Assembly: GCF_033153115.1 (NCBI RefSeq)
Contig: NW_026889758.1
Location: 34,162,001 to 34,226,000 of the forward strand
Reading direction: 5' to 3'
Length of the DNA stretch: 64,000 nucleotides
DNA from: Saccostrea echinata
Lineage: Eukaryota
In this document: piece after piece, positions 17,555-60,271 of the stretch
Layout: the number at the start of each line of letters is the position of its first letter
Position numbering within the stretch: position 1 is the stretch's first letter
The notes under the pieces: generated by a model
Seen by the model: only the letters and a program-made list of their open reading frames with translations
Database searches by the model: none
Told to the model about the DNA's origin: nothing
Made by a program: the position numbers and the translations under genes

Positions 17555-19527
17555 CTATGATCGAATCGCAGCTAGAATCATGCAGCCAAAATTGACCGCG
17601 TTCAGAACAGTTCTAAAGAGATGTCTGCTATTCCAACGCTCTACCGCGTCTTCCAGCCATTTTTCACCTGCAAAAAATATTTTAAAATTTTCTTAATATT
17701 TGAAAGATTCCATCGTTGATAATTTCTTTGTGTACACAGTGCGATCAGATTGCACGATTTAAAAATAAAGCATTTAATCCGCAGACTGACACTTGTACAA
17801 ATACCTTTAAGTTCTATAGGGAGACTGGGACTTTTTACACTATATCTTAAATTGTTTTAAATAAAAACCACTGAATGAATTTATCATCTACTTGGAATCT
17901 GGATAATTTTGACCTCTGATGAATTATAGAAAATAACACCCTGAATATGAATTCTCGGACAGAAAATTAAAATCTCTGCAAGACACAAATTACTTCAATT
18001 GTTCACTATTTAAATATAGAATAAAAGTTACACAAAAGCTGACAATACTTTTGATTTTTTTTTTCTTTAAAGTACATTTTGATAGGGTTTCATTCAATAC
18101 AAGGAAATATAAGTGTTGAAATATTGTAAAAGCTTCAGATGAAAGGGAAAAAAACAAAGAAATTTATACTTCTCATAAGCAAAGTCTCACTTAATAATTG
18201 AAAATATTTTATTATAAACTCTAAGTCTCCACAATAAAGTGAACTTCATGCCTCTGTCATGATAAGGATCAATACACAGACAGTATGAACTATTCTTGTA
18301 AAAGGAGGCAGTTACACCTAGTACTCTTAAGCCTAATTTTTCTATTACCAGTAGTAGTAACCTATGTGAATGTTGAATTTTTTTTTACTGGATCACAATG
18401 ATGGAATCATACTGATGCAATATTAAGGGCATGTAGCAGCTAGGTCATCCCATTTGAGAACTTTCGCTCTATGTACCAATGTATATCGTAAATAGATTTG
18501 ATGATCAAAACCTACGAAAATATGAGTAGGTGCATGGAAAGTGACTTAATAAAAGAGAAGACAATTCTATACATCAAAGTGAGAATCAATAATGAAAAAA
18601 AATTACTAGTAAACAGGATTTAAAAAACGTACAGCTTCAATTCCTGTTTGCGAGTCAAAATACATACTATTTACTTAGGTCCCTATATGTATGATGCTGC
18701 TTCATGATACTACTAATGCAACGAATTTTCCCGATTTTTTCACAAAGAAAAAAAAATTAAAATGAAATCAAATAATCAAATGGCATATATTCAACTCGGT
18801 CAATAACTTGGACAGAATAATTAATTTTAATATAGATAAAATAAATCAAAATAATGAGTACCTTTTTTCTCTATAACTTTCTCGTCTAAAATAACGTTGA
18901 CCTCTGGAATGATAATAGTAAAGGTATAGATTGATCCAATGAGGAAACAGGCAGGGGACACCAACCATAAATTCCTAGACGGCGACTCCTCAAGGGCGAA
19001 ATAGAGGTAGGTGGGGGCGGAAGCAGTAACAAGAGTGGAAGCCAACTGAAAGAGAACGAAAAGATTTCATCTGGAGAGGAAAACGAAATACTTTTTCATA
19101 TTTAGCTAATTTTTTTTTTAATTCAACCAAAATAATAATGAACGAAATAATAAACAAACATTATCAATAAATGCTTCTTATTGTTTCATATGCATTGGAA
19201 TTAAATGCAGTTCTAGATAACTAACTTAGTATTAATTATTAAAATGTCGCAATTTCTTATAAATCTCGAGCCCGGTATAAAATTAACCAGTTTTTCTGCA
19301 GCTTATTCTTAAATTAAAAGGCTTAAATGCATTTAACGTAACTTGAATACCATTGATTTGGCCGCCATTTTAAAACTTCTTGTAAACTGCTGCCACAATG
19401 CTTTGGCTGGCAACGATCGTCTGCTTTGAACTTCCACCAGAGAAACGTAAATTCCAGCTCCAGCCATGTATCCCGTGGAAAAAACAGCCGCTAGCTTACA
19501 TCCTTCTATCAGATCCAAAGGTGCCAT
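17555..19527 (-). CDS. DUF1772 / anthrone-oxygenase-like small membrane protein, copy 1 (3 exons, 157 aa)
   Basis: Exons 19527-19351, 19045-18862, 17667-17555; GT-AG; 474 nt in frame. The pattern GAGIYVSLVEVQSR...W..F..S / YTFTIIIPEVNVIL / ERWNSRHLFRT matches the DUF1772 (PF08592) signature recalled from memory, with about 4 hydrophobic helices. Confidence 0.8.
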
Positions 19528-20011
19528 CGTTAATCTTGAAACTCTTTTCCTTAAATAAGGTTGACGTTCGACGTGCGCACCTTGCTATACCTGGCTTTCA
19601 GTTGATTTGCCCTACTTTACAATGTGCTACGCTTTGCTGAGATTAAGATGATTGAAAACCCTATGCACAGAAGACATTTCGAATTGTAATATTAACACGT
19701 ACTTCAAAGTTCCATAACCCACAGACGAAGAAAAAAACAAGTTTAAAGAGAAATATGTTTTCAAACTTCAGATATAGGACATTACATATTTTGCAGTTAA
19801 AATCTAAATATCTAAAGTATCTTTTTATCTAATGGAAAAAAGGTAAAAGTCCTTATGCTGAGTTGTTTAAGTATGTCACTCCTCCAAAACCCAGGGTCAG
19901 GATGAAACACAATAGTTGTTCATAGTTTTGAACAGGGGCTGGGGAATCAAAATATTGGTATTACTCAAACAGTAACGAAACTGATTTTCGTACAACTAAT
20001 TAGCGAAACAG

Positions 20012-20090
20012 TCATATCAATGAGATCATGCAGCCTAAATAAAGCTTGAAAAGTTCTGTCAGTCTAAAGTACAACCACTTTTCACCTGAA
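20012..20090 (-). pseudogene. Orphan degenerate DUF1772 exon-3 relic
   Basis: Reverse strand reads ttcag|GTGAAAAGTGGTTG...GGCTGCATGATC (GEKWL...GCMI) with an internal deletion. The adjacent intron sequence 20100-20215 resembles 17680-17790. Confidence 0.55.
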
Positions 20091-20409
20091 AAAGATAATT
20101 TAAGTTTCTTAAATAAATAATGTAAAAATCCACTGTTGAATTATTTTTGTTTACACAGTTCATTCACGATTGCTTAGCTGAAAGGATTCATATTATATGC
20201 ACGGCTGACACCTGAATCCACATTTCGAAAGGATATTTGAGGACATTAAGATTATATTCTCTTTTTCGAAAGAAGAAATTAAATTGAGTATAGAATTGTA
20301 AAGTATGGAGAGCATTAACAAAATGCAACATATTCTCTTGGTACTCGAAACAAAACTATTCCTAATCAGTCTTCTGGAAAGAACATTATACAGCTAAGTT
20401 AGAAAAATA

Positions 20410-21425
20410 CATTGTATGAAAATATGGAGATAACGAACAGTAATCAAGCTCAAAAGTTCATTGAAACAATACAAATCGGGAGCAGAGCAAATACGAACCT
20501 CTAAAAGCATCAGAGGTGGGATCGGGTACTATGGAAGAGTAAGCATCCCCAGTCGACCGGTCACACCGTTGCTCCTTGTCATGATCGGACAAATGGAAAA
20601 ATCCGCAGACAATTCAGTGTGTAAGTAATGGCCTAACAAATAGTATGAAGAACGCCAGTCAGCATTCGACTTAATGATAGACTGTGTTTGCTGACAAGGT
20701 CATTGTATCGACCATAGAACTTGCGAAATGTTTACTTCAACGAGACTGTTGATATCCTTGTTTCATCAACTTGTTTGTCAATAGCTTGCCTCGTTTTAGA
20801 AATTGTTCGAACGTAGAGTATGCTCTTGTGTATCGAATCAACTGGGAGACATTAACTCCATATGTCCAAATGTGAAACAGATGGTGTCAGACTCTGTGAT
20901 ATCTTTTATTTCAAGTTCACTAGGATATATCGAGTCAACATATGAATGGAGGTAACTTTTATTAATTGATAATGCGTCGTTGATATATCGAAATGTAGAG
21001 CTGAAGGTCACAACAAGTGTTTTCTTCATCTCATGTATACGTTTTTTTCTTCTTCATATGAATCTAAAGATAGGTCTGCTAAAAAAGGAGCACAATTTAT
21101 ACCCAAGGGATTTCCGACAGGTTGTTGGAGGACTTGAACTCCAAATACTACATAGATATAGTCAATAAGAAATTTAATATCAACTTCGAAGTACTTGTGC
21201 GTACAATCAGAATGTTCAATGTGGTGGTATAATTCAACTGTGGATTCTGAAAACCTCATCAGAACTTTAACTTTTTAGAAAATTAAAATTCACTAACAAA
21301 GAAACACAATTCGTGAGCATGGGAATTCCAACATATTATTGGAGGACCTGGTCTCCAAAGACAACACAGATATTGTAAATGAGGAACTCCTGCATCTTTT
21401 TTATAACAACTTCATAGTGCTTGAT
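20410..21425 (-). mobile_element. Penelope-like retroelement remnant (RT domain and 3' tail, with a partial tandem piece)
   Basis: Decayed peptides VFGVQVLQQPVGNPLGINCAPFLADL.L.SYE and TFRYINDALSIN...IYPSELEIKDITES resemble Penelope-type RT (GIPMG.NCAP; RYIDD). A second VFGDQV...GIPM copy lies at 21290-21420. Confidence 0.78.
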
Positions 21426-21429
21426 GGCT

Positions 21430-21818
21430 GATGTTATTATTTGATAAGGAAAAAATGATAATGTTTATACGATGCACTAATAGTTTCTGGTGTAAACTTA
21501 TGTGTTTCAAATAACTTTTGGAATGGTGTGAAAGATAACTCCAATATGAGTTACCTGACCCTAAACTTTTTTGAGCATCTTAAAACACCACACTTACATA
21601 GGCAAAAATACAATCTTCTTTGCTTTGAGACTGAATTTTTGTGATTTCTCCTAAGTAAACTTTTCATTATTGTTAATATCACTTTTGATCAAGGAATCTG
21701 GATATGGAGGTAATATACCAGAGAAAAGTGCAAGGCATACAGATATAAACTTGTTAGAAAAAAGGGATATTTGAAAGGGATATATTATCTGCGGAGGGGA
21801 TAGGTTTACATATGCCAT
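21430..21818 (-). pseudogene. Decayed, internally deleted paralog of the TRIM-like gene
   Basis: Start context gaagaacATGGCATATGTAAA mirrors the TRIM start (gaagaacATGGCATACGTAAA), and upstream 21900-22190 resembles 17210-17550. Residual peptide FETHKFTPETISAS compares with FETKKLRPTSVSLT. Stops and frameshifts are present, and the relic is truncated by a Penelope-like fragment. Confidence 0.6.
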
Positions 21819-22199
21819 GTTCTTCTTGCGTGGAAGTTCCGGAAAGTTTACTCATAACGATAGAGAATGCAATGCTAATGAACAATAGAATACATCAACT
21901 TGAACTAAAAGAAGGCTATATTAGTAATGTCTATCGTGCTGATTGCTCCTTTTGAAACATGAGCGTTTGCAATTAAAGTCTAATATGTCAAAATATCACG
22001 TTTATTATGAAACTGCTTTACAGAAAAAGAGAGAAAGAAAGCAAAGTACTTTCCTACACATGTTACAACATGATCATAATAAGCACCTATAGAACACTAA
22101 AATAATTGATGAATGTATAGAAATGGACGTCACAAAGGATAAAAATTGACTAATTCAGTTAATTTTGGCCAGGAACAGTGAGTTGGTAAAATTTCTTTG

Positions 22200-23149
22200 C
22201 TATGATCTAATCGCAGCCAGAATCATGCAGCCGAAATTGACCGCGTTCATAACTGTCCTGAAGAGATGTCTGCTATTCCAACGCTCTACCGCGTCTTCCA
22301 GCCATTTTTCACCTGAAAAACACCATTAATATCGCTTAATATTTGAAAGATTCCACGGTTGGTAATTTCTTTGTGTACACACTGCGATCAGATTGCACCA
22401 TTAAAAATGAAAACATTTAATCCGATGTGTTCCCTGCAAGATTGACACGTATTAAGACTCGGATTTTTTTCAGTTAATAAGCGTAAACCGTAAAACAACA
22501 CTTAAGCAAAATAGGTATAGATAGAGAGTACGGAATAAATCATACTGAATATATTTAATGTCTAATTTAACTGAAAGTATATGTAGCGCCCCGANNNNNN
22601 NNNNNNNNNNNNNNNNNNNNNNNNNNNNNNNNNNNNNNNNNNNNNNNNNNNNNNNNNNNNNNNNNNNNNNNNNNNNNNNNNNNNNNNNNNNNNNNNNNNN
22701 NNNNNNNNNNNNNNNNNNNNNNNNNNNNAAACATCTGGATGTCCACATACGCTGATCAAATTAAAAGAGCATGTAGAAGGTCATTCCATTTAAGAACTTT
22801 CGCTTTGTATGATTGCTTTTCGCAAATTTGATATGATACTTACTTCCATTTAGGCAAGTGCTTGGCAAGTATGTCAATATATGAATAAAACAATTAGAAA
22901 AATTGAAAACAATATTTTTATAAATGACAAAATGGAACATAATGCAAAATAATAAACAGTATGAATAAACTGTACAGGTTCAATGCAGGGACAAAATGCA
23001 TAACTTAGGTCCCTAAATCTAATATGATATTGTCACTTCTTGATATTGCTATAATTTTTCGGATATTTTGAAATTGTAACATTGTACTGAAATTAATTGA
23101 AGTAATAGACTTTGAAAGAATAAGTAGGTAACAGTGATTGAATAAATCC

Positions 23150-23180
<31 letters not shown>

Positions 23181-23821
23181 ACCTTTTTTCTCGATAACCT
23201 TCTCGTCCAAAATAACGTTGACCTCTGGAATGAAAATCGTGAAGGTGTAGATTGACAAAATGAGGGAACAGGCAGGGGAAACTAACCATAAGTTCCGAGA
23301 CGGCGACCCCTCCAGGACGAAATAGAGATAGGTGGGGGCAACAGCGGTAACAAGAGAGGAAATCAGCTAAAAGAGAACGAACATTTCTTGTTTACATGTA
23401 TGATCTGGCGAGACTAAAATGCCTTTACATAAAACAAGATAATAATCACAGTTGTTTCAAAATTTGCTATAAATTCTTTTTATATGCAGTAGAGTATGAG
23501 AATCTTATTTATTTTAGTATAATTCTAGTTGCCAGCATATTGCAATTTCTGCTAGTATAAAATCCATCAGTAGAACTGTAATTTCTCATGTTGGAAGACT
23601 TAAATTCATCTAATTAATGTAACTTGAAATAACCCTGAAATTACCATTGACTGGGCCGCCACTTTAAAACTTCGTGTAAACTGCTGCCACAATGCTTTGG
23701 CTGGCAATGATCGTCTGCTTTGAACTTCCACCAGAGAAACGTAAATTCCAGCTCCGGCCATATATCCAGTGGAAAAAACAGCTGCTAGCTTACATCCTCC
23801 TTTCAGATCCAAAGGTGTCAT
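22200..23821 (-). CDS. DUF1772 / anthrone-oxygenase-like protein, copy 2 (3 exons, 157 aa)
   Basis: Exons 23821-23645, 23366-23183, 22312-22200 have the same lengths as copy 1 (177/184/113), an intact frame and GT-AG sites. Intron 2 contains an N-gap. Confidence 0.8.
22595..22728. other. Assembly gap in intron 2 of DUF1772 copy 2
   Basis: N-run. Confidence 0.95.
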
Positions 23822-24217
23822 TGTTAATCTTTAATAATTTTCTTTTTCTTAAAAGAGGTTGATGTTCGATGAGCAGACCTAGCTATACCTGGCTTTCAGT
23901 CGATTTGCTGTATCTATGCAATGAAGCTACTTCTTTCTGCAGTTTAGATGATTGATTGTCCTATTCACAAAAGGTATTTCAAATTTCAATGAAATAAAGA
24001 GACTGTTTAAAGAGGAGTGTGCTTATGACATTAGGCACGTAGCATGTTTTCAAAGTTAGGAAGGAGTAGTGGCAGAAAAAAATTAAAAAGGAATGAAAAT
24101 TGCTGAACAAAGCGATAACTGCCCAAATTTGAAAAACCTATTTCATGGAGGGGGTTCAGCGATTCAAACTTTCCGCAAAGAAAGGATGCAATTATGTGTG
24201 AGGGTTGATTATACATG

Positions 24218-25714
24218 TGTTACACTAAGAGTTTAAATCTAAAGTTTGTCTGTCTGTCCGTCTGTCTGTTTAAATTGTCAAAATGTAAGGTTACTCAATT
24301 TTGCACAGTTTCTTGTAGTGTTTAGTTTAATTGAAGAAAAATCTTTTGTTCTTTTGATGTGACTTGTCGTTACTCGTGAAGATTTAGACGTTAGATTTCT
24401 AGGTAACAAAGTTAATTCTCACTTCCTTTGTATTAAATTAGCATGTCTCTTAAGATCAAATAGTCATATCAAGCCAATGAGTAAATAAATAAATTCTTCT
24501 TTATTTCGGCATCTTTGGAAATAAATTCTTTATACACTTAACTTGACACTTCGAAATTCCTCATCACGGAAAATGTTTACTTTGTTTCGGCTTTTCTTAA
24601 TCCGTTTTTGTTATTAAAAAAGTGTCCGCGGACAGATAAGTAATTGAAGTAACACTTTCATTAGTTGAGCGATTAGTGTCAAACATAAAAGAAATTTTGC
24701 CGAAATTGGCTAAAACTATTCTGTAACATGCTTCCTGATTGGTCAGAATTCAAGTCTGTAGAATGACCGCATCGGTTAGTGATTTCAGCAAAATCACTTT
24801 CTGATCTGGTCTGAAGAAATAAAGTTCATTGTAATTCTACAGATTTGATTCTGTCTTTTTAGGTAAGCTTGAATTTTTATTCTAATTACTTAAAGAATTT
24901 TCATCTTAAAATAACGATATTTAAATAAGATTGAAAGTTTTCATTTAGGTTAAGTTAAGAATTTTAAAAGGAATTTGTAGACTTCTTTGTTTGATTATTT
25001 TTACTGTTTAAGTATTGTGTTTAAAATTATTTTTCATTTATAACTTACTTACTGGTAGAAAATATTTTATTGTAATTTGCAAATTCATATCAATTCATTT
25101 TATTTTTACTTAATCTCTAAATCATATTTTGTTTATAATTTTCTGAAAGTTTTTCTTTGAATTTTTACTTTTTGTTTACTTGGAAATTTTTGTGTTTCGA
25201 ATTTACCGCTAAAATTTTATGTGTAACTCTTTAGTAAGCGGAGGCGAATAGCTTAGTGTTTACAAGCTAAAACCGAAAGTAGTAGCACTAAATTCTAAAA
25301 CTGCTTAAATTTATTTAATCTTTGATACTCGCTTATTTATCTATTGATCATTATGACAGACATTTGTAACAGTTTAATCGGTAAGCTTAATTATTCTTTA
25401 TTTTGGTAAAAAGTTTATTTTCTTTCATAAATGGATATTTCTCCGATAGTGTTCGTGACTTTGTTTAATAAATAATGATGTTTACTTCCGATGTTGTTTA
25501 TGACTACTACAGTTTGTAAACTTTATTATTATTGATTGATATTGATTTGTATTGAAAAGATCACTTTCCGATCTGGTCTAAAGAAATAAAGTTCATTGTA
25601 ATTCTACAGATTTGATTCTGTCTTTTTAGATTTATACTGTGATTGTGATTTACTCACATCAGACACAGCTAATTCCCCAAATAATCACGAGGGTGAAAAC
25701 CAGAGGGTGATACA
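24218..25714 (+). mobile_element. About 1.5-kb insertion, solo-LTR-like
   Basis: TGTTACAC...GTGATACA ends, an internal direct repeat of about 68 bp containing AATAAA (24795-24862 and 25561-25629), and ATACATGT at both boundaries. Absent from the paralogous segment at 19700-19860. Confidence 0.5.
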
Positions 25715-26094
25715 TGTACTGCTATAAAGAGTGGGGGAGGCGCCTTTCAATCATAATTTTCATACTAAATAAACAGAAAAAGTCCATTCTGGGGCAAAGT
25801 GGCAGAGAGGACCCCTTCCCCTTGATAGGTGACTGTAACACTAGACTTGTTTTGCAGTTGAAATTTGGCAAATATAAGTCTTTTAAGTATCGCATTGTCC
25901 AATGATAAATCTTTTGTTTCGGATTAAGAGGCATAAATACTAATGTTGTGTTGTTGAAAGTATGTCACCCCAGTGTCAGGGTGTGATACAACAGTGGTTT
26001 ATTGTTTTTGAACAGGGGGTAGTCTCCAGGATCAAAATATCGGTATAACTCAAATAAGAAAAAGAGAATGACTAAGAATTTACATAAATCATCA

Positions 26095-26203
26095 AAAAAG
26101 AAACACAACAGTCAGAATCATGCTGCCGAAATAAACCATGCAAGATCAGTTTCCATCAAGTTACCGCTTCTTCCATTTTTATTGTCCAACCATTCTCGCT
26201 GCA
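26095..26203 (-). pseudogene. Second orphan degenerate DUF1772 exon-3 relic
   Basis: Reverse strand reads tgcag|CGAGAATGGTTGGAC...TTCGGCAGCATGATTCTGACT with frameshifts. Flanks 25950-26060 and 26210-26550 are homologous to 19860-19975 and 20090-20410. Confidence 0.5.
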
Positions 26204-26744
26204 AAATGTAATAAAAGTTTCTTAGGAGAAATAAGAAAATCACTGTTGATAATTTGTTTGTCTACACAGTGGGGTCAGATTACTTACCTAAAAGGATTCA
26301 ATATAAAGTACCCAGTATTAGTTGCACGGCTTACAACTGAACGAACATTTCAAAATAATATTTGAGGACATTTTTTGCTTTTTTGAAAGCAGAAATGACA
26401 CACGAGGTACACATCTGTAATGCTTGGAGAAGTATTAACAAAAACATTATTCCGTTTGTATTAGAACCAACAAAAATATTCGATGAAAACGGAGTAAGTA
26501 TTGTCCAGAAAAAAGTATAATAGCATTTTACAGCTAATTTATAAACAAATGATTTGAATGTGATATGGCACATTGTAACTTAAATGATATTTAAGCTACT
26601 TATCAAAGGGTCATTTGCAGTATATGTATGCACCAGAAAAAAGTTCATGAACGACCCCACCAAAGATGGATCATGAAACAGACATAAGGTCCCAATAGAG
26701 TTCATCTTCACGAAGTTTACGTACAAAGATATCGGATGATACCG

Positions 26745-26826
26745 TATAAACCGAGTTCCCGTGTCGCAGTAGATGCTGGCACGAAAAAGATCCCTCACTG
26801 CTCAATGCGAGTATAGGTCTAAATTT
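26745..26826 (+). mobile_element. SINE central-domain fragment (mollusc tRNA-SINE-like)
   Basis: ccgtgtcgcagtagatgctggcacgaaaaagatccctcactgctcaatg...ataggtctaaattt resembles bivalve SINE cores recalled from memory. Confidence 0.4.
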
Positions 26827-27399
26827 AATTATGATTTATGAATAGGAGAAAAAGCTGCCAATCATAGAAATCTCAATATAAATGGTAAGGGAGTGGGATG
26901 CTGAGGCAGTGGAGTACACTGAGAACAAAAATGAGCAAGAAAAGTGATATCTAGAAAGCGGACAGGTTTTCCTAGGAAGAACAACGTCTATATCTACCGG
27001 AATTGTGTATAAGGTAGAATAATGACCAATAATGCGATCTGGAATTTCTATAAGTCTATGACATAGATGAAGAGATGAATAAACAATCACCTGCTAATAT
27101 GTTTGGGTATATTGAAATGTTTTGCATCCTCTTGATGCTTTAATTAATTTCCCATAGTACCTACAGTTATCTGTATTAAAGAGTTATATGGACAAAATGC
27201 AGGTTATGTGAGAGGTCAAGGGTGAAAAGATACTTGAAGCAATATTTATCATAGATCAGAAGAAATTGGTCAGAAAGGATCACTGCTCGGAAAACCAAAA
27301 TAAAGAGGCAATATATACAAGGTTCATAGTAGTCAACAAGGTGTTAATATAATTAAAACCATGTTCATAAATTTGTATTGTTTGTAGTTTTTTTAAAAA

Positions 27400-27610
27400 A
27401 TGAATCACTGTTCGTTATCTTGTCCTTTTTCATTTCACACTTAATTTGACTACAGATTACTGTGTTTATCTAATCAATTCACGGCGGTTCACCAGTGGAC
27501 AGGGAATACTTTGTCCTCTTAGGTACCTGATTCCACCACTAATAGTTCCAGGGTTCCGTGTTTTGTCCGGTTCTCGACTTGTAATTGTTTATAGGATTCA
27601 CAAGATTTTC
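27400..27610 (+). mobile_element. Penelope-like 3' tail fragment
   Basis: acggcggttcaccagtggacagggaatac...ggtacctgattccacc...ccaggggttccgtgttt is similar to 63637-63722. Confidence 0.55.
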
Positions 27611-28092
27611 TTTTATCTCCTTGTCATACTATGCAATGCATGATGTCACAACATCCCTGGTTTGGAGAGCTTTAATCTCAGCCAATATTTTACAACATGC
27701 CATTAACATGTGACATTTGTTTATTGTAAAACAAGATAAGGTCCGGTGCTTTTCCGGAGATCTCAGGTAAACTGGACACGACTTTTTACAGCTTTATATA
27801 TGCTTATATTATTTTAGCCACTAGCCCTCTGCGTAGAGGGAAAGTGTCACTGGTTATTTCTTTGTGTCCAGTGATCTGCATCTTCTTTCACTTTGTTCAG
27901 TTCGGTTGGTCCAAAACATAAATCTTGCCAAAGCGGTAGTAAATTTTATTTCAACTTCTTATTGATAACTACAGTTACGAAGAAAACGTTGGTGTATTTT
28001 TTAAACAGAACATCTTCGGTATGAGATTTTGTATATATATATATTTACTTCTCTTTATGCAATAAATTAGCCAAGTGCGTGTAGAATTGAAG

Positions 28093-31000
28093 ATGACAGA
28101 AAATGGTGCCGAAAATCCCAAAAAGGCCCGACTTGAAGACGACCCTTTCAGATGGCCTGGGTACACAGGCGAAGCGTACCCAGAACTGTGTGACATTCGT
28201 GCGATGCCCCCGCAGCCGAAAGAACTAAAGCCCGGACAGCTTAAGGAAGACCTGATTCGGCAATATTTTGAAGAGGTATGAGCCACATTAACTTTAGGTG
28301 TTAACTAAACTGAGACTCAGAGTCTCATATCTCTTATGAATCTATATCTGAAATTTTCAAAATATCAACTAAAATATAATACTATTTCCCCCTTTTTTTG
28401 TAAATACTTTATTTTCCTTGTGTGATTCCACGTGATGGATCAATTTTGAAGGCAGTATGTAAAATGTAGATGCTATTTTTAGCAGAGACATCTATAAAGA
28501 GGACATCCGAAACGTGGATTAGATAAGAGGCAATGTGAAGTGTTACTGGAGATAACTTATCGCAGAAATTGAGCCAAGTCTGGGCTTATGCACCACCTTC
28601 TTTAAATTCTTTTGATTTTCATAGCTAGGGATTATTTCTAAATTTGGTTCAACAACCATTTTAAATTTTCTGAAACAGTGATTGTAAAAACCCTTGGCTG
28701 TCTTATCTGAGGGTAAAGGTCAGTCTTAAGGAGAGGCACAGTAGAAAACACAGCGATACAATGTAGTGCATTTTGGTAAATATAGATGGAAGGCAAATAT
28801 TTTAGGAAAATGAAATTAAAACGGATACTATTGCTCTGAAACATTATGCATGCCTAGGCCAATTTGGAATCGACAATGCGTGAACACGTATATAGCCTTG
28901 ACATTCTGAATAATTCCAGGAAAACACGTGGTTTCCCTTGAATACTAGCCTAACGTATCATGACTCCAATCTAATTAAACTTAGATGTTCCGAATCCGCT
29001 ACCGCTTGAGAAGGGGTAGCGGATTCGGAATATCTGATTTTAATTAGATTGTCATGACTCATGACTCGGAAATATTGATCAAACACTTTTCATTAACATT
29101 ACACAATTTTGTGATGAACATCGTCTCGTATTTCAGGGTTACTTGATAATAAAGGACTTCTTTACGGATGACGAGCTCCAGGCTTGTAGGGACGATCTAG
29201 AGGACGAAGTTGATCAACTAGCAAACAAGCTGTACAAGGCGGGAAAAATAAAAAGTTAAACTACTTATTATTTTATACTTCTTTTGCAAATGGATGCGAT
29301 GGTAAAAAGAAAAAAAAATTATTGAACAAATGTGAAAAAAAATTCTGAAACTGAATATCACAATGGCATTTTTTCAGATCTCTACGAGGAATACGACCTC
29401 GATCATCGTTTGATTAAGATAGATGAAGAGTTCCCTGGAGCGGTCATTTTGCTGCACAAAATCGGCCGTTTACCGCCGGTAAGTGTATATAGCTATAGGG
29501 CCTAAGTAAAATTTTTATTATGTGTTTAAAACATCAACTGGACATGTATGTATATCGGTAGATAATTTTTTTTCTTGAAGGAAGGAAGCATTTGTGAACT
29601 TTGCATAATTACGCATCAACCTGAGTTAATTGGATTCATGAAAAACAGCCTACTTACGGATTGTATCAGAGTCAAAATTACTTTGGATTTATGTAAACAA
29701 TACTTTTGTCTTTTTAACAGTCCTTCAGGAAACTATGGGGCAACGAGAGACTTTTAAACCTAATAGAACAGCTGATTGGTCCAGACATTGCGGGTATGCC
29801 CAACTGGAATTTGCGGGATAAAACACCTCACAACGAGGCCACAACAGTACCATGGCACCAAGGTATTGAGAACGTATTAGTAGCCCTTATACATTGCATG
29901 ATTTTTTTTTTCAGTTTTCATAAGGATATTAGCAAAATGACAGTTTGGGTGGAAGAAAATGAATTTTAAAAACCCTACCCGCGGGAATTGGAAATACAGT
30001 TATCTTTAATCTGACTTACCTGAACCTAAACTGGTATTTATTTGTGATTAACATCCATCCATAAGCACCATCCAAGCCCTTTAGTTAGCAAAAATACTTT
30101 TCTCTTTGTGGTGATCAAGGCTGAATTGATATGAATATTTCTTCTTGTCTTCAGTAAATTTATTATGTATTTCTAATTTCATTTTTGAAATTTAATGAAA
30201 ATGTTATTTATGGAGAGCCTTTGAAACCATGGATATTCTTAAAGAAAGGCCTAACGGCCTCAAGCAAACAGTTCGGTTTTCGGGTCCGAAAAACACGTTG
30301 TCCTCAAACCTAGTCAATAAATGTTTACGGTTTCAATCCAAACATTCACTAATTTAGTTTTTATATAATGCCTATATATAATAGCATACTTGTAATATGT
30401 CAGAATTTGTACTTTCGGAGAAAAAAGGTCTAATCACAAATAAAAAACGTAAAATAATGTGATTCACAAAATATTGAATATAACCAGAAGTAATGCCTGA
30501 GTTACTGATCGTTCCAGATCTTTCGATTAGTAAACAATCATAAAATCTTTGTGCTGGAGCAGTGCATGTCATCTCAGTAATGGTGTCAAAATTAATGAGA
30601 ATTTTCTTGAGAAAGTCTTTTTTTTTTTTTTTACATTCGTCAAGCACATTTTAGCTCTACTGGCCAGAGACCGGAAGAGTTTATGCAATGGTCACATATC
30701 TGTACGACTGTCTGTTTGTTAATAAACATTTTCTCAAAACGCTCTTCCTCCTACAGTTTTAATCCGATTTGAAAAAGTACGCAACTATACTACACTAAGA
30801 TACATAATTTTATATACTGTGAAATAACAAATTTTCGTTGGGGTTTAATTTTTCGTTGTTTCATGGTATGGAGATTCCCACGAATTCATGTCCTCCACGA
30901 AATTTTAAAAATTACAGAGTACAGTATCGTGTACGTGTCTACTAACTAATAAATGAAATCACCTTGAATTGTATTTTTTCATAAATCAGGAAAATTTGAT

Positions 31001-32736
31001 CCCACGAAAATGAGTGATTTTACAGTACATGTATCGGATTTTGATTTCGACGAACGATATTCTAATGCTTTCTAAAAATAGAAATTTCCTTTTAAAATGC
31101 TACTTCTCCTAACGTTTTAGACGTCCATGTATCTCAATAAAACTTACTACATAAGTAGAATACAGGCAACAGTAGTTGTTTACAGTTATTGATGATTTTA
31201 GATGCAGGATATCTGTCCAAAGACATTTACAAAGTCTTCATGCCTACTGTTTGGATCCCATTTGTCAACACAAACAAAAAGAATGGTTGTATGGAGGTAA
31301 TGTAGAAAGAGAAATATGCCATACAAATAAAACTCAAAATTTGTCCAAAAATCGATATTTTTAAAGATACATTAATATCACAGATATTTGAAAGGAAAAA
31401 TAAAAACTTTTACGAAATACAATAGATCTACAACAAAGCATAACTCAAAATTCATTGTCAATTTAATTTACTGTCCATTGTATATTAAAGGTAATACCGA
31501 AGGGTCATTTGAGCGGAAAGGTTGCGGTGCACCAGTGCTGTGCAGGGGACACATGGTATATCATGTTGGAGGATGAGGAAATGAAAAAGAGGCTGGGTGA
31601 GAACTCTGTACCCTGCTGTCTGTCTCAGTAAAGTGATTGATAACGCAATACACATTTGAGGGTCTCCCTGTCCATGATATAAATTTTGCTTTAACGGCAA
31701 TGCTTTAATAAATCTAATTTATTAATAAAATGCACAGAATTAAACCGTACATTTACGGGGCAAAGTGGAAAAAAAATCACATTATTTTCTTACTAGTATA
31801 TCACAGCAAAAGTTATCTCTCTTATCAGAGGGTCAGTGAATCTTAATGAAACTCGGAAAGTAATGCTGAATGTGCTTTGGAACAATAAAATTATTGTGAC
31901 AATCTATTTTGGAGAAAATGTCGGACGAATCGTATACTTCCTTATGTTTCAGCACAGAATTTCAACTGTTTCTGGTTGTTATATCTGCTCATTACAGGCC
32001 GTGAAGAGACCAAAGCTACGACAAAGGTTCAGAAAAAAATGTAATTTATGCAATCCTAGTTTAAACATTATTATAAAGAACTTTTTTTTGTTTGTAGGTT
32101 GCTCAACAAAAGATGCGGTTGTGTGTGAAATTCCCTACGGAGGATTTCTACTTTTCAATAATTTCATTCCCCACCGAAGGTAAAATATTATCAAAGTACT
32201 GTGTACTATTATGTCATAGATTTCGAAAGAATAAAAAAAAGTCCCATTGATGATTTGCTTCAAATATCATTAAGTCTAGTCATTTTCATGATTTGAAAAT
32301 AGATCTAAATTACTTACTTAAAAAAAATTCTTCATTAAAGTCTTGACAACAAATCGGACCACATCCGCTGGAGTGTAGACCTTAGGTTCAAAGTTCCAGG
32401 CGAAAATAACGGGATGTTTGGGCTCAAACCTGACGTCATAATGCGCACGAAAGAGAAACCTAACATGGAGATCGACTGGGAAACCTTTGATTCTCTAAAC
32501 AGAACGGAACTCCAGATGAAATCCGTCAAAGATATTGTTGACGTATGCATTAATTTACAGTTGATTATTTAGTTTTATTTAGTCCAAAGGGACCAGATGT
32601 TATGGAATGGACTCAGTCCCCTTTCTTTAGTAAATGGTCACTTGTGGATAAGACCCCCCCCCTCCCCCTATACACCCTGAGGACTTTTCGACATTTTTCA
32701 TAAATTATTGTTCTTAGACTATATTTTGTCCCAAAA

Positions 32737-32775
<39 letters not shown>

Positions 32776-33133
32776 GAGAAAAACCATACAAGGATATGGT
32801 CATTTCAGTTTATACCAGAACTCTATTAACATTGTTTGGGACTTTTTCCGAATCGTAGCATACCGATTCAGAAGGTATTTAGATTAGATTCTAATCACTG
32901 CCATAGAGAAACTCAACCAAGTGATAGGAGCATGAGATTAAAATCATATTGTAATGTAAAAATATATATTCATTTATACCATTACTCTCTTACAATGATT
33001 TGTATCACTGCAGGTGAAAGAGGACCAAGAATTCGATACAACCGTGCAGGGGCCCTGGATGAGAAAATGGGAGATAACTCACATTAATACGCATGTCCAA
33101 AAGCACCAACAGAAAGAAAAGTCAAAGAGCTGA
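28093..33133 (+). CDS. PhyH-family Fe(II)/2-oxoglutarate dioxygenase, paralog A (9 exons, 382 aa)
   Basis: Exons 28093-28275, 29137-29254, 29378-29478, 29721-29862, 31202-31296, 31491-31596, 32098-32179, 32341-32542, 33014-33133; 1149 nt in frame. PhyH motifs: QYFEEGYL, VPWHQDAGY, TVWIPF..T.K.NGCMEVIPKGH, PHRSLDNKSDHIRWSVDLR. Confidence 0.9.
28967..29051. mobile_element. 85-bp hairpin MITE with a 9-bp TSD (Mutator-like)
   Basis: Near-perfect palindrome caatctaattaaac...tttaattagattg flanked by TCATGACTC at 28958-28966 and 29052-29060. Confidence 0.75.
30815..31027. mobile_element. TACTGT...ACAGTA MITE nested in a decayed HINE (about 30648-31140)
   Basis: Imperfect TIRs tactgtgaaataacaaattttcgttggg / cccacgaaaatgagtgattttacagta. 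Confidence 0.6.
32735..32775. repeat. (AAAT)n microsatellite
   Basis: Directly visible. Confidence 0.95.
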
Positions 33134-33977
33134 AGACTATACTTACCTATCTCTCTTAAAAAACTATGTTTGTGCAATCAGCCATATATCATGGCTGACA
33201 GGATCATTTTAATTTTTTATCTATACTTTCCATGTACATGTACAATTATTTGTGATATTAAGACATAAAACAGTTTTTGATTATTAATTCTTGTTTAAGT
33301 GGGTGAATAAAAATAAAGTATTTTGATTATGCGCAAGAAGAGTTTAATCATATTTAAGAAAATTTTTATAACATGCATGAAAAAAGTTCGTTCAAACACA
33401 AAATAAAATGCACTTTAGAGTTACTGCAATGCTGAAAAGTAGCAATGAATGCCACTGTCAATCAAAAAATCTGTGAAAGTGTGAGAAGCGCCAGCTATTC
33501 CTCTTCCTACAATGTACATGTAGCTAGCTGTGTCAGAAACATTAGTACAAAATTTCTGAATTTGAAAATAAGAAAGCTCATATTTTTATGACAATTGATA
33601 TTCTGATTTTTACTTTCTCTTTGGCTTTTTGTATAGTGTGCATGACTTTCCTTTTCGCCCTGCAAGAGTCGATTAAAGCGAGGGGTTACGAGGGTTGTAA
33701 CAAATTCTAGTGAAGGAAGCACATATGACACTGACTACTTATGATCAACATTTAATTAAACAATATTTACAATTTCGAATGTTTTTGTCCGAGATAAAAC
33801 TACAAATTAGGTAACAGATTTATATCCTCATAAAGCCATTTGCTCAGCACGTAGCAGAACTGCATGCTTTCTCGCTGTGTGTTGCTTTGTAATACATTGG
33901 ATGGCGCTGGCGCAGATTCCTTATTATTGAATAAAAACATTTTTCATTGAGACAAGGATCGGGTAAAAATATAAATA

Positions 33978-38394: not shown

Positions 38395-38712
38395 TAGATG
38401 TAGCTTGAGCAAGAGCATGTTCTACGTATGAACAATTTCTAAAACGAGGCAAACTATTGACAAACAAGTTGATAAAACAAGGATATCAACAGTCTCGTTT
38501 GAAGTCATCATTTCGCAGGTTTTACGGTTGATACAATGACCTTGTCAGCACATACAACCTATCATTAAGTCAAATGCTGACTGATGTTTTTCATACTTAT
38601 TGTTAGGCCATTACTTATACACTAACCTGTCTACGGATTTTTCCGTTTTTTTCTTACCGATCATGACAAGAAGAACACGGCGGGTGTGACCGGTCGGCAG
38701 GGGATGCTCAGG
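38395..38712 (+). mobile_element. Penelope-like 3' fragment
   Basis: Decayed RT end (ARACSTYEQFLKRGKLLTNKLIKQGYQQSRLKSSFRRFYG) plus the tail ggcgggtgtgaccggtcggcaggggatgct. Confidence 0.72.
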
Positions 38713-39364
38713 GGAGGCAGGAAGACGGTGTAGACATGGTGAAATAGAGAAAGTTAGATGTTATATACATGCTTTAAATTTCATAAAGGACATGAACGTA
38801 TTTTTGGTTTGGTGTGATGCATAAGAAGTGAGATCTTTTAATCAAATCACTGCCAAGGAGAACATAATCATGGGTTTGTCGAAGGAAAAAGCTACCAAAT
38901 AGATTAATCAACACATATACTACATGTCTTTTTACTATCATTTTCGCTTTGCACTAAATAAGTCCGGGGCGCAAAAGGGCAGAGACACACCCTCAGGAAG
39001 AAAGGGTTTTAAAAGAATAACTAACATGCAATTTATTTTTAATCCATCTATAGTAAGTTTATTTTCTCTTCCTTGATAGTCATACACAAAATAAACAAAT
39101 CTTAAACGTTTGAGAATGTTATATAACTGGGTATTTAGAATTTGTTGCACTAAGGATGAATACGTGACTCTTGTACAAATTCAATTCATAAGAATTTTCA
39201 TATTATGGATTATTTTTGTTGAACAAGTTGATGAAAATACTCTGACGACAATCATCTATCACTTGATCTACTTAATTAAACCCTTTAAAACCATGAATGC
39301 TATTGTACCTTTTTAAAACAAAAAAAATTATACATGTACAATCTTCATAACGAACATAAAAAAA

Positions 39365-40353
39365 ACAAGATGTGTTTGTGAAACACTGATGCCCCCGTAC
39401 GGCAGCTCGTGGCGAAGGTTAAAGTTTCTCAAATGCAAGTCAAACTCTAAGGTCAAAGCCAAGAGATAAAAAATAATGGTACCCGAAGAAATGTATTGTC
39501 ACAAGAAAAACACCTGTGAAATAAGACAGTCCAAGTACAAACTGTTCAAAAGGTATGGCCAAGGTTAAAGTTTTTTCAAAAAATGTCAAAGGGTCAAACT
39601 TAATGGAGCCCCAGGGAAGGTTTTTTTTCCACAAGAAATACACATTTGAAATATGAAAGTCCTAGCACCAACTGTTCAGAAGGTATGACCAAGGTTAATT
39701 TTTTTCAAAAGTAGGTCAAACTCCAAGTTCAGGGTCAAAGGTTGAAAATTGTTGGTACGCAAGGGAGGCCTTGCCACAAGAAATACACCTGTGAAATATA
39801 AAAGCCCTTGCTCTAACCATTCAAAAGTTATTGGACAAGTTTTTCTAAAGTAAGTCAAACTCAAAGGTCAAAGGGTCAGAATTGTTGGTACCTTAGGGAT
39901 GGCCTTGTCACAAGGAATATACCTGTGAAATATGAAAGCCCTAGCACTAACTGTTGAAAAGTTATGGCCAAGGTTAAAGTTTTTTGAAAGTAGGTCAAAC
40001 TCCACGGTTAAGGTCAAGAGGTAAAAAATATTTGTATCCAAGGAAAGGTATTATCATTAGAAATATGCAATAGACTTTGAAAGCCTAAGCACCAACCATT
40101 CAAAAGTTATGGCCAAGGTAAAAGTTTGGTAATTTTTTTCAAAAGTGGGTCAAGGTCAAGTATGTTCACACCCAAAGAAAGTCTTGTCACAAGGAATACA
40201 CCTGTACAATATGAAAGCCATAGCTCCAGCCAATCAAAAGTTATGGGCAAGGTTAAAGTATTCGCAGACAAACAGATTAACAGACAAACAGACAGACGGA
40301 CGGACAGGCCAAAAACTTTATGCCCCCGAAATCTTCGATTACGGGGGCATAAC
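39365..40353. mobile_element. pearl/HINE-like element with about 7 internal 120-125-bp repeats, ACAG microsatellite and terminal hairpin
   Basis: acaagatgtgtttgtgaaacactgatgccccc ... (acag)n ... ttatgcccccgaaatcttcgattacgggggcataa. Confidence 0.8.
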
Positions 40354-57100: not shown

Positions 57101-60100
57101 TCTTTCATTTTCAACATAGGGTACCTGTCGTATTTCTGCAGAAAAAATGTTCAAAAACAGTGAAGTATTATTGAACTTAAATAACCTCTGTTTACTTAAA
57201 TTGGGAAAGTACTTGAAAATAATGTTTTCAATTACTTTATCTTGGTCTAATATAATATTAAGAATGCTTTAATCTATTTTAAATTGTGTCATTTAATGTA
57301 GAGTTCCATGTATTCCATTTTACATCAAAGAGCAGATCACTCTAACCGCATAAAACTGCCATAGAATTTGAACTCTTTAGTGAGCAGTGTTTAGAGCTTT
57401 CTTAACATTTTACAAGTTCTTCCCACCTTGTTGAAGCCACTTTGTCCACCTCCTAGGCACATTATTACTTGCTGCATTTTAACGCACACACAATTTTCTT
57501 TGTATTGCCATAACACTATTTTGGGTCGCCTTTTTCTTAAGCAACTTATACGATTTTATGAAGGGTTAGGAATAGGGTTAGGTATAATTCCAGGTTTTAT
57601 TGGTTATTATTGACAAAATAGTAGCAAATGCATATGTGTACTTTTGTAATGTTTTTTAAAGGTATAGCTGGGAATGTCAGGGACACGAACGACACGTGGA
57701 AATGTGGGGTAATTTATGCATAACGGGATTCGCCGCTATGCAAACTATCCCACGTTTCCAGCTTTTGTTAATGACCTGGCATACCCAACAAACTAGTCAG
57801 TGATTCCTTACATTAACATTTATACGTAAAATAAAAAATAAAATGTAAAATCAAAAATGTTGTCTTGTAGAATTGAAATATACAAAAATATTCGTGTTAA
57901 TTCCCATAGTCCCCGGCCATTGATGTCAAACGCAACGGCAGCCCGGGAAATTGACTTAAGGAATAACTGTCTTATTTTTTGGATTCGTGATGTGATCAAT
58001 CGAGAGGCTTGCGTGATAATTTGCATAAACGCCGAAGGCGTTTATGCATAAAATTATCACGCAAGCCAATCGATTGATCATCGTCATGAATCCAAAAAAT
58101 TTGACAGTTATTCCTTATATTTACATGCTCCTGATTCTGCAAATTCCCGTGCTAATAGCCCCGCTTCTGTCTTTATTTGTCTTTATTTGTCACGCCCCGC
58201 ACGTGATTTTTTTTTAACCGCGCCTATCGATGAACCAGTAGATTTATGTAGAAATAAAGTATTTTTACAATTTGTAATTTTATCTCGGACAAAGACATTG
58301 GAAATGTAAATATTTGCATATTAAGCACCTGACCTTTCATTTGACGAAATTTACATTCAGTTGTCAATGTCATATTGTAATTTTTGAATTTACCGGGTGG
58401 TAGTAAATACAAAAATTACAATATGACAACATTGTAATTTTTGTATTTACTACCACCCGGTAAATTAAAAAATTACAGTATGATATCAATATCGAGAAAT
58501 ATTTACATCCACTGAATATTATCTCCTTAATTTATTTCTCAAGAAAAACATTGCATATCACTGTGTAGATTTCTTGAGCAGTGGCTGTTCCATCAATTAA
58601 ACGTACAATGGCGTATAAATCAATAATATTCCATGTACTAAATTCTACTTTAAATGATTATTTGTACAGATCTATATAAATATAAACAATAAAATGTCTT
58701 TCTTTGTTTGTTAGTACTGGGATTAACGTTGCATCTATTGCAGAAAAAATACATATCCGCTTACGTGGGTTATGCATTTTTTCTACAACAGCTGCAACAT
58801 TATTTACCGTACTAACAAAGAAAGCATTTTATTGTTTAGAATTAACACACTTAATTTTTAAAGAGTTATCAAATAGAATAAAGTTTGGAAATTGTATCAC
58901 CTTTTGTATTTTTCATTAAATCAATAGAACTTACACATATTTCTATATAATATAAATCTCAATGATATTTTAATCTTTAAAAAATTAATTTGATGGTAAA
59001 ATTTCAAGAAAGAATGATTTTTTCAAGGATTACGAAATTATTGTTTAGGTTTTTTCATATTCTTTCTTCAAAGTTTATCTTCATGTATATATAAGGTAAT
59101 ATTCAATATTTTTTTCCTTCTTACAAGTTTACCAAATCTATCAAAGTCGATTCGTTGGAGTTTAGACCTTCGTTGGCAGAGACCAAGTGAACCTGTGGGT
59201 TTCTATGGACTGAAAGAGGGAATTCTAATGAGGTCTTCCAAAGATCCCAACATGAAGATTGACTGGGAGTCATTCGACGCCATTAACCGACATGATAAAC
59301 AAACGTCTGCAATGACTGGCAAGGTGAGGCATATGAACCCTACAATTACTTTAGGTTTGTCACCGACTGTCCACAGTTAACCAAGTAGGTGGAAATAAAA
59401 TTTTAACAAGATATAAATATTACACTTATTTCAAACCACATTTTTCAAATAAAAATATTACAATACACTGTATACATGCAGCACTAATTCTAGTTAATGG
59501 TTTTGTATGAGCTAAATGATGTCCACTGAATTATATGTCAGTAACTGTGCTTCGCCTTCCATGGACTTGAACAACCCGTAATATTTCTGAGGACAGTATC
59601 AAACCATATAAGTGTTTTGTTTTGTCGAGAACCAATAACAGTTAACAAACCTACCGAGATCGATTAAAATTGAATTATTTTATCGTCTGTGCAAATCTGT
59701 TAACTCATTACGTCACTAAAAATGGGCTCCGCTCTAAATTTAATCGCAGCAATGCCAAATCGGTAGGGACATTTAAGGACTGAATCATTATTTTTTGAAA
59801 GATATTTACATTTTTACTTCCTTGCCTTGACTCCAGATGTGATTTATATTTCAAAATCCCTGTATTTTCCTTCGGGTAAGTACAATTCATGGAAGAGCTA
59901 TTGCAACAGCTTTTGTTCAATGTGAGCGTGAATTTTGATTTTCGCTTATGACGTTGCACTTACATGGCTTTCAACGTTTGTCACGTCAAAATATAACGCA
60001 TACTTTAACCCTTAACCCCCTGTCCGTGTTATGGTGGGTAACTGGACGTGAATTGCATTCTTTAGTGGATTTACCCAGACTGAAGGCGTTGCGTTAGGCT

Positions 60101-60271
60101 GAAACGGAAGATAATATGAATAATTTTTACTCTTCACAGGAAGAAATTGATGAGTTTGATACAACCATTCAAGGGCCATGGATGAAGAAATGGGAAATTG
60201 TGCATGTGAATCGACATGTAGAAAGACACAGAGAAATGGAAGACCAGCCAGAAACTTGGACGAAGGCATAA
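51175..60271 (+). CDS. PhyH-family dioxygenase, paralog D (9 exons, 368 aa)
   Basis: Exons 51175-51306, 52806-52923, 53726-53826, 53916-54057, 54133-54227, 54521-54626, 54796-54880, 59128-59323, 60140-60271; 1107 nt. Motifs WHQDVGY and PHRSLPNLSKSIRWSLDLR. Confidence 0.9.
52358..52716. mobile_element. MITE with CAGG termini and 5-bp TSD (ACCAA)
   Basis: accaa|caggggcgtagcta ... taggtacgcgcctg|accaa. Confidence 0.7.
55385..56335. mobile_element. Palindromic MITE interrupted by a later insertion
   Basis: Left arm aatattgcatgtagttgagtgtaacattgaaaattt. The right arm is split into aaattttcaatgttacactcaa and ctcaactacatgcaatatt. Confidence 0.75.
55519..56309. mobile_element. 791-bp TIR element with a 5-bp TSD (CTCAA), hAT5-like
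   Basis: Perfect 14-bp TIR cagggatttatcag / ctgataaatccctg, TSD at 55514-55518 and 56310-56314, subterminal ttgggaaa repeats. Confidence 0.8.
56529..56923. mobile_element. hAT-type MITE with an 8-bp TSD
   Basis: TTGCATAT|tagagatggg ... cacattccta|TTGCATAT, with subterminal atcgtgat/atcacgat repeats. Confidence 0.8.
57957..58117. mobile_element. Palindromic MITE
   Basis: taaggaataactgtc ... gacagttattcctta. Confidence 0.75.
58368..58465. repeat. Double palindrome (inverted duplication of a hairpin)
   Basis: tgtaatttttgaatttaccgggtggtagtaaatacaaaaattaca followed by its near-exact reverse complement. Confidence 0.75.

Follow-up and report, generated by a model that had tools for sequence, protein, structure and literature searches.

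Neighbouring DUF1772 and PhyH gene arrays in the oyster Saccostrea echinata, most likely a case of ordinary oyster-level microsynteny

The window of Saccostrea echinata DNA analysed here, a stretch of 64,000 nucleotides, carries genes of two enzyme families side by side, and it raises the question of whether they form a co-regulated small-molecule module, as the first-pass annotation proposed, or two tandem arrays that are simply neighbours. The locus is real, and its uncharacterised enzyme genes are most probably neighbours through ordinary microsynteny at the level of oysters.

Gene content and family assignment

The locus is composed of two minus-strand DUF1772/Anthrone_oxy genes of three exons opposite four plus-strand PhyH genes of nine exons (Table 1). 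All six gene models could be rebuilt at their proposed coordinates with GT..AG introns and zero internal stops, so that six intact spliced genes of two families, both locally expanded in this bivalve, are upheld. The divergent layout stands insofar as the arrays are opposed; with DUF-A lying behind DUF-B, however, the one strictly head-to-head pair is DUF-B with P1. The proposed shared region of about 4.3 kb corresponds to the 4,271 bp between the ATG codons of DUF-B and P1, but an untranslated 5' exon of P1 extends back into it to ~27.3-27.5 kb. No further DUF or PhyH copies were found in the window by tblastn, and the flanking genes are YIF1 and a B-box gene. At position 20088, a 22-nt match marks a possible remnant of a third DUF exon 3 (it scores 34, where 291 random stretches reach 27 at most).

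Table 1. Coordinates of the genes and of the transcript features between DUF-B and P1
Feature	Position	Strand	Details
DUF-A, DUF1772/Anthrone_oxy, 157 aa	17555..19527	(-)	exons 19527-19351, 19045-18862, 17667-17555
DUF-B, tandem copy, 157 aa	22200..23821	(-)	exons 23821-23645, 23366-23183, 22312-22200
Putative intron, distal 5' exon (from ~27462 upward) into DUF-B exon 1	23800..27461	(-)	
Exonic in both directions: P1 5' UTR exon and DUF-B distal exon	27335..27935	(.)	contigs
P1, PhyH-family Fe(II)/2OG dioxygenase, 382 aa	28093..33133	(+)	triad H180-D182-H274, R285
P1 exons 1-5		(+)	28093-28275, 29137-29254, 29378-29478, 29721-29862, 31202-31296
P1 exons 6-9		(+)	31491-31596, 32098-32179, 32341-32542, 33014-33133
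P2, PhyH paralogue, 365 aa	34548..37689	(+)	H167-D169-H261, R272
P3, PhyH paralogue, 365 aa	40497..46680	(+)	93% identical to P2
P4, divergent PhyH paralogue, 368 aa	51175..60271	(+)	H163-D165-H258, R269

The product of DUF-A is letter-for-letter the NCBI Saccostrea echinata protein XP_061173012.1 (P0001, LOC133182255). Full-length database copies were used for the Pfam searches, single exons falling below the cut-offs, and the 157-aa DUF-A matched PF08592 with an E value of 1.8e-10 and 41.4 bits (cut-off 27.3), which confirms the DUF1772 assignment. DUF-B is 91% identical to DUF-A with both introns at matching positions, and it matches an alignment-built profile (A4) at E 7e-51. With a dN/dS of 0.15 and a dS of 0.32, the two are a young duplicate pair under purifying selection. 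Four residues that are nearly invariant in 109 relatives (G23, W132, H136 and R139) are kept in the oyster proteins. The AlphaFold2 model (pLDDT 97) contains four long helices. Foldseek gave no matches to it at E <= 0.001, the best VIA match (Z 14.0) was a designed helical bundle with fold searches otherwise returning generic helical bundles, and no clear PDB relative was found by sequence. The DUF1772 genes are predicted, from the modelled fold, to encode small four-helix, probably membrane-associated proteins, which by analogy with fungal members may be oxidases that need no cofactor or may bind reduced aromatic compounds.

Those fungal members are the anthrone oxidases HypC, EncC, GedH, MdpH2 and TpcL of emodin/aflatoxin clusters, which likewise belong to PF08592; a corresponding function of the oyster proteins would be a prediction from family membership. 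In contrast to the fungal enzymes, the nearest named relatives of the oyster proteins are bivalve proteins, with named DUF1772 relatives in oysters, pearl oyster, mussels, scallop, ark shell, clam and unionids. Unlike the fungal anthrone-oxidase clusters, the oyster window has neither a polyketide synthase nor a thioesterase that could be seen.

P1 is identical letter for letter to XP_061173013.1 (P0029, LOC133182256), also an NCBI Saccostrea echinata protein, for which the top Atlas clusters are 100% PF05721. A protein 93% identical to P1 (P0008) matched PF05721 with an E value of 5.5e-21 and 76.3 bits (cut-off 22), and P2-P4 were assigned by alignment-built profiles, which they match at E <= 5e-167. 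The H-x-D...H iron triad and the 2OG-binding Arg are present in all four paralogues, and together with the PF05721 match they bear out the PhyH assignment. P4 is 49-53% identical to P1-P3, and all four genes share the intron phases 0,1,0,1,0,1,2,0. P2 and P3 are a second young duplicate pair under purifying selection (dN/dS 0.12, dS 0.30). The PhyH genes encode soluble Fe(II)/2-oxoglutarate oxygenases. Their putative substrates are small metabolites from the diet or from turnover, which they most probably hydroxylate or O/N-demethylate in the digestive gland.

Human PHYHD1 has the PF05721 fold in common with these proteins, and the triad and Arg of P1 align to its H156/D158/H246/R257. The aromatic residue at His+5 (F161 in PHYHD1) is Y185 in P1. 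The ribose-binding residues K102, H105 and Q139 of PHYHD1 were left unaligned by HMMER and were placed by spacing, W277 being unplaced; on this basis K102 would correspond to K128 of P1, and the equivalents of H105 and Q139 are not conserved, varying over P1-P4 (R/K/K/S and N/S/D/V). The match of PHYHD1 to the oyster proteins is only E 0.017, weaker than to four other structures, and PHYHD1 is shorter than the oyster proteins by 75-90 residues. The oyster PhyH genes are a clade separate from PHYHD1 and not its orthologues. PHYHD1 and PHYH-like enzymes are 2'-O-methyl nucleoside demethylases (PMC12709175). A phosphonate dioxygenase identity for the oyster clade (PhnY*/HtxA-like) is unsupported by PDB and NCBIfam hits, NCBIfam giving sub-threshold hits only; the sole pointer to it was the automatically assigned name of a relative in scallop.

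Linkage and family spread in other genomes

Synteny in relatives was judged by accession order and record length as a proxy for coordinates. By this proxy the genes appear to have stayed adjacent in Saccostrea and in two species of Magallana, with (near-)consecutive LOC/XP numbers and equal chromosome length, and in C. virginica the DUF1772 and PhyH counterparts lie on one chromosome. In Pinctada, however, the closest counterparts are split between records of 114,981,146 and 67,888,243 bp, and in the bay scallop Argopecten between records of 75,513,862 and 71,477,355 bp. In the trees, the Pinctada DUF gene FSP39_005249 groups with the oyster DUF genes (SH-aLRT 99) and the Pinctada PhyH gene FSP39_007424 with P1 (support 100/99). 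Orthologues of P2-P4 have no assigned position in pearl oyster, scallop or mussel, and the DUF gene there may therefore have a different PhyH paralogue beside it. Linkage in relatives had been set beforehand as the refuting test of the module idea, and for the closest counterparts in these two genera it breaks down beyond Ostreidae; the DUF1772-PhyH pairing appears confined to true oysters. No account of the linkage was found in the openly accessible literature mentioning DUF1772.

The DUF1772 family also multiplies elsewhere. Mercenaria has four named copies on one 82.4-Mb record, and Magallana has a second paralogue on a different chromosome. Table 1 of PMC8382680 has one row for a bivalve-expanded orthogroup annotated DUF1772, OG3835, with 3.3 genes per bivalve species and 0 in 17 other species; the row comes with neither a function nor a linkage, and the oyster genes would belong to this orthogroup by annotation. 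Bacterial DUF1772 loci lack a PhyH gene in all 80 cases, and none of 10 PhyH-like loci has a DUF1772 gene. A metagenome scan for the PhyH clade gave 10 loci, five short ones at 36-59% identity and five at 23-27%, and 101 pattern matches yielded no confirmed relative of this clade in a prokaryote genome. Horizontal acquisition of the DUF gene is a possibility weighed on a quick tree of 121 relatives, in which deep support is weak and most rows are unnamed.

Two independently arisen tandem arrays that are neighbours in true oysters, that is, ordinary microsynteny, are therefore the probable explanation, because Pinctada and Argopecten have the closest counterparts on separate chromosomes, DUF1772 copies multiply independently of this locus, the bacterial loci are unpaired and no synthase was seen in the window. 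A rearrangement around the oyster lineage would have joined or separated the arrays, with the adjacency kept afterwards. The apparent adjacency in Saccostrea and Magallana, the shared chromosome in C. virginica and the similar ages of the young duplications argue against this explanation, as do the overlapping 5' exons seen in two studies, described below.

Transcripts and expression

Transcript evidence comes from contigs of four runs labelled 'RNA?', none of which is recorded as RNA; the contigs are spliced, and they carry no strand, start or abundance by which genes could be ranked. All eight P1 introns are joined as GT..AG in all four runs, and a spliced P3-type contig is likewise present in each. 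A deep contig placed on P2 bears P3 letters and hence gives no P2-specific signal. Contigs lie on the DUF-A exons; for DUF-B, runs X1 and X5 have contigs on the exons as well as on the 3' UTR. The placed contigs concern DUF-A to P3 and do not extend to P4.

The P1 5' UTR is spliced from plus-strand donors after 27766 and 27935 to an acceptor before 28071. In the opposite direction, contigs of X1 and X5 (two of the four runs, from two studies) join 23800 to 27477, and the window has minus-strand splice letters at this putative DUF-B intron (GT at 27461-27460, AG at 23801-23800), the contig letters at the junction being 1-2 bases off from the window. The overlap of the DUF-B distal exon with the P1 5' UTR is a hint of a shared promoter. 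A functional bidirectional promoter common to P1 and DUF-B (or a single ancestral DUF gene), giving co-regulation outside any one pathway, would also fit the head-to-head layout of this pair and the preserved adjacency that accession order indicates among oyster genera, but it is an unlikely reading. The distal isoform bypasses the ATG at 23821 and enters DUF-B downstream of it; the contig letters hold an in-frame stop upstream, and only a 137-aa product from Met21 is possible. Alternatively, the joint may be a heterozygous deletion allele instead of an intron, which would resemble a spliced joint in contigs. Sequence just upstream of the DUF-A and DUF-B ATG codons is conserved (19318-19685 with 23595-23985, 81%), which suggests that each gene has its own proximal promoter, and this speaks for two separate arrays. 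With separate arrays, the 5' overlap would most likely be antisense transcription from the P1 promoter that is spliced at a cryptic site, rather than the main promoter of the DUF genes. A crude regex count found no ARE/XRE/MRE/HSE motif common to the upstream regions of the genes.

In the Pacific oyster, the P1 orthologue LOC105320095 is in a list of 1,527 hepatopancreas-enriched genes, and the DUF1772 orthologue LOC105320098 is absent from it. This separation favours two arrays over a shared promoter, though the list is one thresholded table and absence from it is weak evidence on co-expression. Digestive enrichment is established for a single gene, the P1 orthologue of Pacific oyster. A role in digestion finds some support, limited to the PhyH genes. 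The gene ids occur in no full texts and in the supplements of one of six oyster papers, the other lists holding selected genes only. For the proposed co-regulation there is the hint from the overlapping DUF-B/P1 5' ends, against the unlinked counterparts beyond Ostreidae and a tissue list that splits the families.

Metabolic module readings and biological meaning

An oyster-specific module in which DUF1772 oxidases and PhyH oxygenases act sequentially on dietary algal polyphenols/quinones or an endogenous pigment is decidedly unlikely. It has a precedent in the endocrocin cluster, where the anthrone oxidase EncC stands alongside the 2OG-Fe(II) enzyme EncD, and the specificity of HypC/AknX is described as relaxed in the same source (PMC9890505). 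At family level only, toxic Pseudo-nitzschia is reported to up-regulate most PF05721 genes in the digestive gland of scallop (PMC6410316). Six intact genes, purifying selection in both tested pairs and duplications of similar age would also fit. Against it, no scaffold synthase, as had been remarked from the start, and likewise no methyltransferase or transporter was found among the inspected ORFs of the 64-kb window; linkage of the closest counterparts is missing in Pinctada and Argopecten; and the bacterial loci offer no neighbourhood precedent. The oyster DUF proteins also depart from the family consensus at several positions (P34Q, A35S, Q59M, P98I and N108V), and DUF1772 proteins are not always oxidases, ChrI being described as an accessory membrane protein (PMC10214503). 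For pigment or quinone tailoring no supporting evidence was found, and two papers on shell pigmentation do not list the gene ids in their supplements, in itself weak evidence. A synthase-free oxidative module in true oysters, in which a bivalve DUF1772 oxidase came to face a digestive-gland PhyH array across a shared bidirectional promoter, with coeval duplications and one class of dietary or endogenous aromatic compounds processed jointly, is quite unlikely.

ChrI raises a further reading, in which the DUF1772 proteins would have no catalytic role of their own and would serve the adjacent iron enzymes as partners in the membrane. The DUF1772-containing ChrI is described as required for the activity of the multinuclear iron enzyme ChrH (PMC10214503, PMC11252979), but ChrH belongs to an enzyme family other than PhyH, the PhyH-family enzymes of PMC12709175 are active alone and the closest counterparts are unlinked in Pinctada and Argopecten, which makes this reading highly improbable.

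Octocoral terpene clusters likewise place genes of unrelated enzyme families next to each other in an animal genome. They are anchored by a scaffold synthase and their product is known. The oyster locus differs from them in having no synthase seen in the window and no established product.

If the locus is ordinary, it provides six intact uncharacterised genes of two families whose bivalve substrates are to be found. Should the module reading hold, it would offer a rare animal case of unrelated metabolic enzymes that are clustered and co-regulated, and would bear on how filter feeders handle algal chemistry. The oxidative module, if real, would make the locus a catabolic cluster of animal genes and supply animal DUF1772 proteins with a first function.

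Gene models and family assignment

The six genes proposed in the first-pass annotation are all present at the claimed positions, with canonical introns and open frames in each. The tandem DUF1772 genes DUF-A and DUF-B encode proteins of 157 aa that are 91% identical, and the PhyH-family dioxygenase genes P1–P4 encode proteins of 365–382 aa from nine exons each, all in the same phases. Identity is 93% between P2 and P3 and 49–57% for the remaining PhyH pairs. DUF-A and P1 match the NCBI Saccostrea echinata proteins XP_061173012.1 (LOC133182255) and XP_061173013.1 (LOC133182256), respectively, at every letter. Assignment to DUF1772 holds, with DUF-A scoring 41.4 bits against the PF08592 cut-off of 27.3, as does assignment to PhyH, for which a 93% relative of P1 scores 76.3 bits against the PF05721 cut-off of 22. 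The six genes are new members of known families and are annotated as uncharacterised by NCBI. Both the DUF-A/DUF-B pair (dN/dS 0.15, dS 0.32, Fisher p 2e-9) and the P2/P3 pair (dN/dS 0.12, dS 0.30, Fisher p 6e-21) are under purifying selection; the synonymous distances of the two duplications are almost equal. The regions upstream of DUF-A and DUF-B are homologous, and the duplicated unit therefore took in 2–3 kb of upstream DNA.

The predicted DUF1772 fold, modelled with 109 relatives, is a confident four-helix bundle (pLDDT 97) for which searches of solved structures gave no informative relative. The oyster proteins keep the near-invariant G23, W132, H136 and R139 and differ from their relatives at several majority residues. 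Alignment to human PHYHD1 shows the H-x-D...H motif and the 2-oxoglutarate arginine in all four PhyH paralogues. All solved PhyH-type proteins are only weakly similar (best E 7e-7), so the substrate cannot be read from structural relatives.

Features of the window, in window coordinates. The two internally repeated families have periods of about 165 bp and about 140 bp.
Feature	Position	Strand	Remarks
YIF1 gene	about 1,000-7,150	-	three exons match PF03878
Internally repeated element	4757-6018; 44935-46374		two inverted copies, 84%
Second internally repeated element	2264-2850; 39362-40368		two copies
Assembly gaps (N)	14133-14274; 22595-22728		second inside DUF-B intron 2, exons unaffected
Dispersed repeat	14793-15205; 20399-20841; 38409-38710; 63361-63786		four copies; very deep coverage in runs at 19.9-21.2 kb
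B-box zinc-finger gene	15565-17238	-	one long ORF; B-box and weak propeller-like match; TRIM-like kind, expanded in bivalves
Segment copied with DUF duplication	17114-17781; 21805-22424		71%
DUF-A	17555-19527	-	3 exons
Homologous DUF-A/DUF-B upstream regions	19838-20361; 25926-26481		65%
Possible third-copy remnant	about 20070-20095	-	22 nt matching the acceptor and start of DUF exon 3
DUF-B	22200-23821	-	3 exons
P1	28093-33133	+	
P2	34548-37689	+	
P3	40497-46680	+	
Open stretch	50387-50995	-	203 codons; no Pfam match at E 0.01; by eye, resembles the C terminus of a LINE-type element
P4	51175-60271	+	

Transcripts and the region between DUF-B and P1

Contigs from four runs, presumed to derive from RNA, join all eight P1 introns; a spliced transcript of the P3 type and fragments of the two DUF genes are also among them. 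Contigs from two studies (runs X1 and X5) lead from the interior of DUF-B exon 1 to about 27462 with a skip of 3.7 kb, continue to 27935, and then pass through plus-strand introns into P1. A contig from run X4, from the same sample as X5, extends from 27335 into P1 without the skip. The minus strand carries GT at 27461-27460 and AG at 23801-23800, and at the skip junction one or two letters are not those of the window. The contigs are most simply read as a minus-strand DUF-B transcript, with a first exon overlapping the P1 5' UTR, that was fused to P1 by unstranded assembly; the skip may otherwise represent a deletion allele. The skipping transcript omits the DUF-B start codon, and a product would be possible only from Met21. 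Sequence directly upstream of the ATG is conserved between DUF-A and DUF-B, which suggests that each has its own proximal promoter. A functional promoter shared by the DUF1772 and PhyH genes is doubtful.

In Pacific oyster, the PhyH orthologue LOC105320095 is listed at FPKM 136 in hepatopancreas, 77 in digestive gland and 9–75 elsewhere (PMC8149454, supplement file 3). This gene and the neighbouring locus LOC105320097 are among the 1,527 hepatopancreas-enriched genes in that supplement, which points to the digestive gland for the PhyH array. The DUF1772 orthologue LOC105320098 is missing from this list, which speaks weakly against tight co-expression. The gene identifiers were absent from the searched supplements of other oyster papers (for PMC8917759, all but five files). 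At the family level, nine PF05721 genes are reported in the digestive gland of scallops given toxic diatoms, most of them up-regulated (PMC6410316).

Proposed roles of the two families

In the digestive gland, the PhyH paralogues would oxidise small molecules with Fe(II), O2 and 2-oxoglutarate. Residues near the site differ among them, suggesting that P1–P4 act on different substrates. 2'-O-methyl nucleoside O-demethylation, described as widespread in PF05721 (PMC12709175), is a testable lead for the oyster paralogues, although the oyster clade is distinct from PHYHD1, with which it has PF05721 in common. The DUF1772 proteins would form membrane-associated bundles and may accelerate the oxidation of reduced aromatics by O2, as reported for HypC (PMC9890505, PMC5635595); alternatively, they may be accessory, like the protein ChrI (PMC10214503, PMC11252979). 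That the two enzyme types serve a common pathway is very unlikely, and their physical partnership is improbable in the extreme.

Linkage in bivalves and bacteria

Synteny was approximated from consecutive or near-consecutive LOC/XP numbers and matching record lengths, an imperfect proxy because the two S. echinata identifiers are consecutive despite DUF-B lying in between; its coverage extends to P1 but not to the P2–P4 orthologues, the PhyH genes of mussels or a DUF gene of Ostrea. The orthologues lie on records of equal length in Magallana angulata (LOC128176302 and LOC128176303; XP_052698511 and ...512) and M. gigas (LOC105320098 and LOC105320095), and in C. virginica the record length matches and the numbers are not near each other. 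The Pinctada DUF gene groups with the oyster genes (99 SH-aLRT; quick tree of 121 rows of 135–190 aa) and lies on a record of 114,981,146 bp; the Pinctada orthologue of P1, which is 83% identical and falls in a 100/99 clade, lies on one of 67,888,243 bp. The closest Argopecten counterparts, of weaker orthology, are likewise split between records of 75,513,862 and 71,477,355 bp. By this proxy, the linkage expected across relatives fails outside true oysters for the closest counterparts in Pinctada and Argopecten.

Of 468 bacterial DUF1772 loci, the 80 best were examined, and their available flanks (up to 5 kb, often shorter) contained no PhyH gene; one marginal candidate proved to be 2OG-FeII_Oxy_5. 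DUF1772 was absent from all ten PhyH-like metagenome loci, and the literature searched held no paper on DUF1772–PhyH linkage. Within the window, 17 chosen non-cluster pieces of the ORFs listed revealed no synthase, methyltransferase or transporter. A co-regulated, synthase-free oxidative module of true oysters is unlikely, and the adjacency is probably oyster-level microsynteny. Four named DUF1772 copies lie on a single Mercenaria record, and Table 1 of PMC8382680 gives a DUF1772 orthogroup that counts 3.3 genes per species in bivalves and is absent from 17 other species. DUF1772 multiplies across bivalves regardless of this locus.
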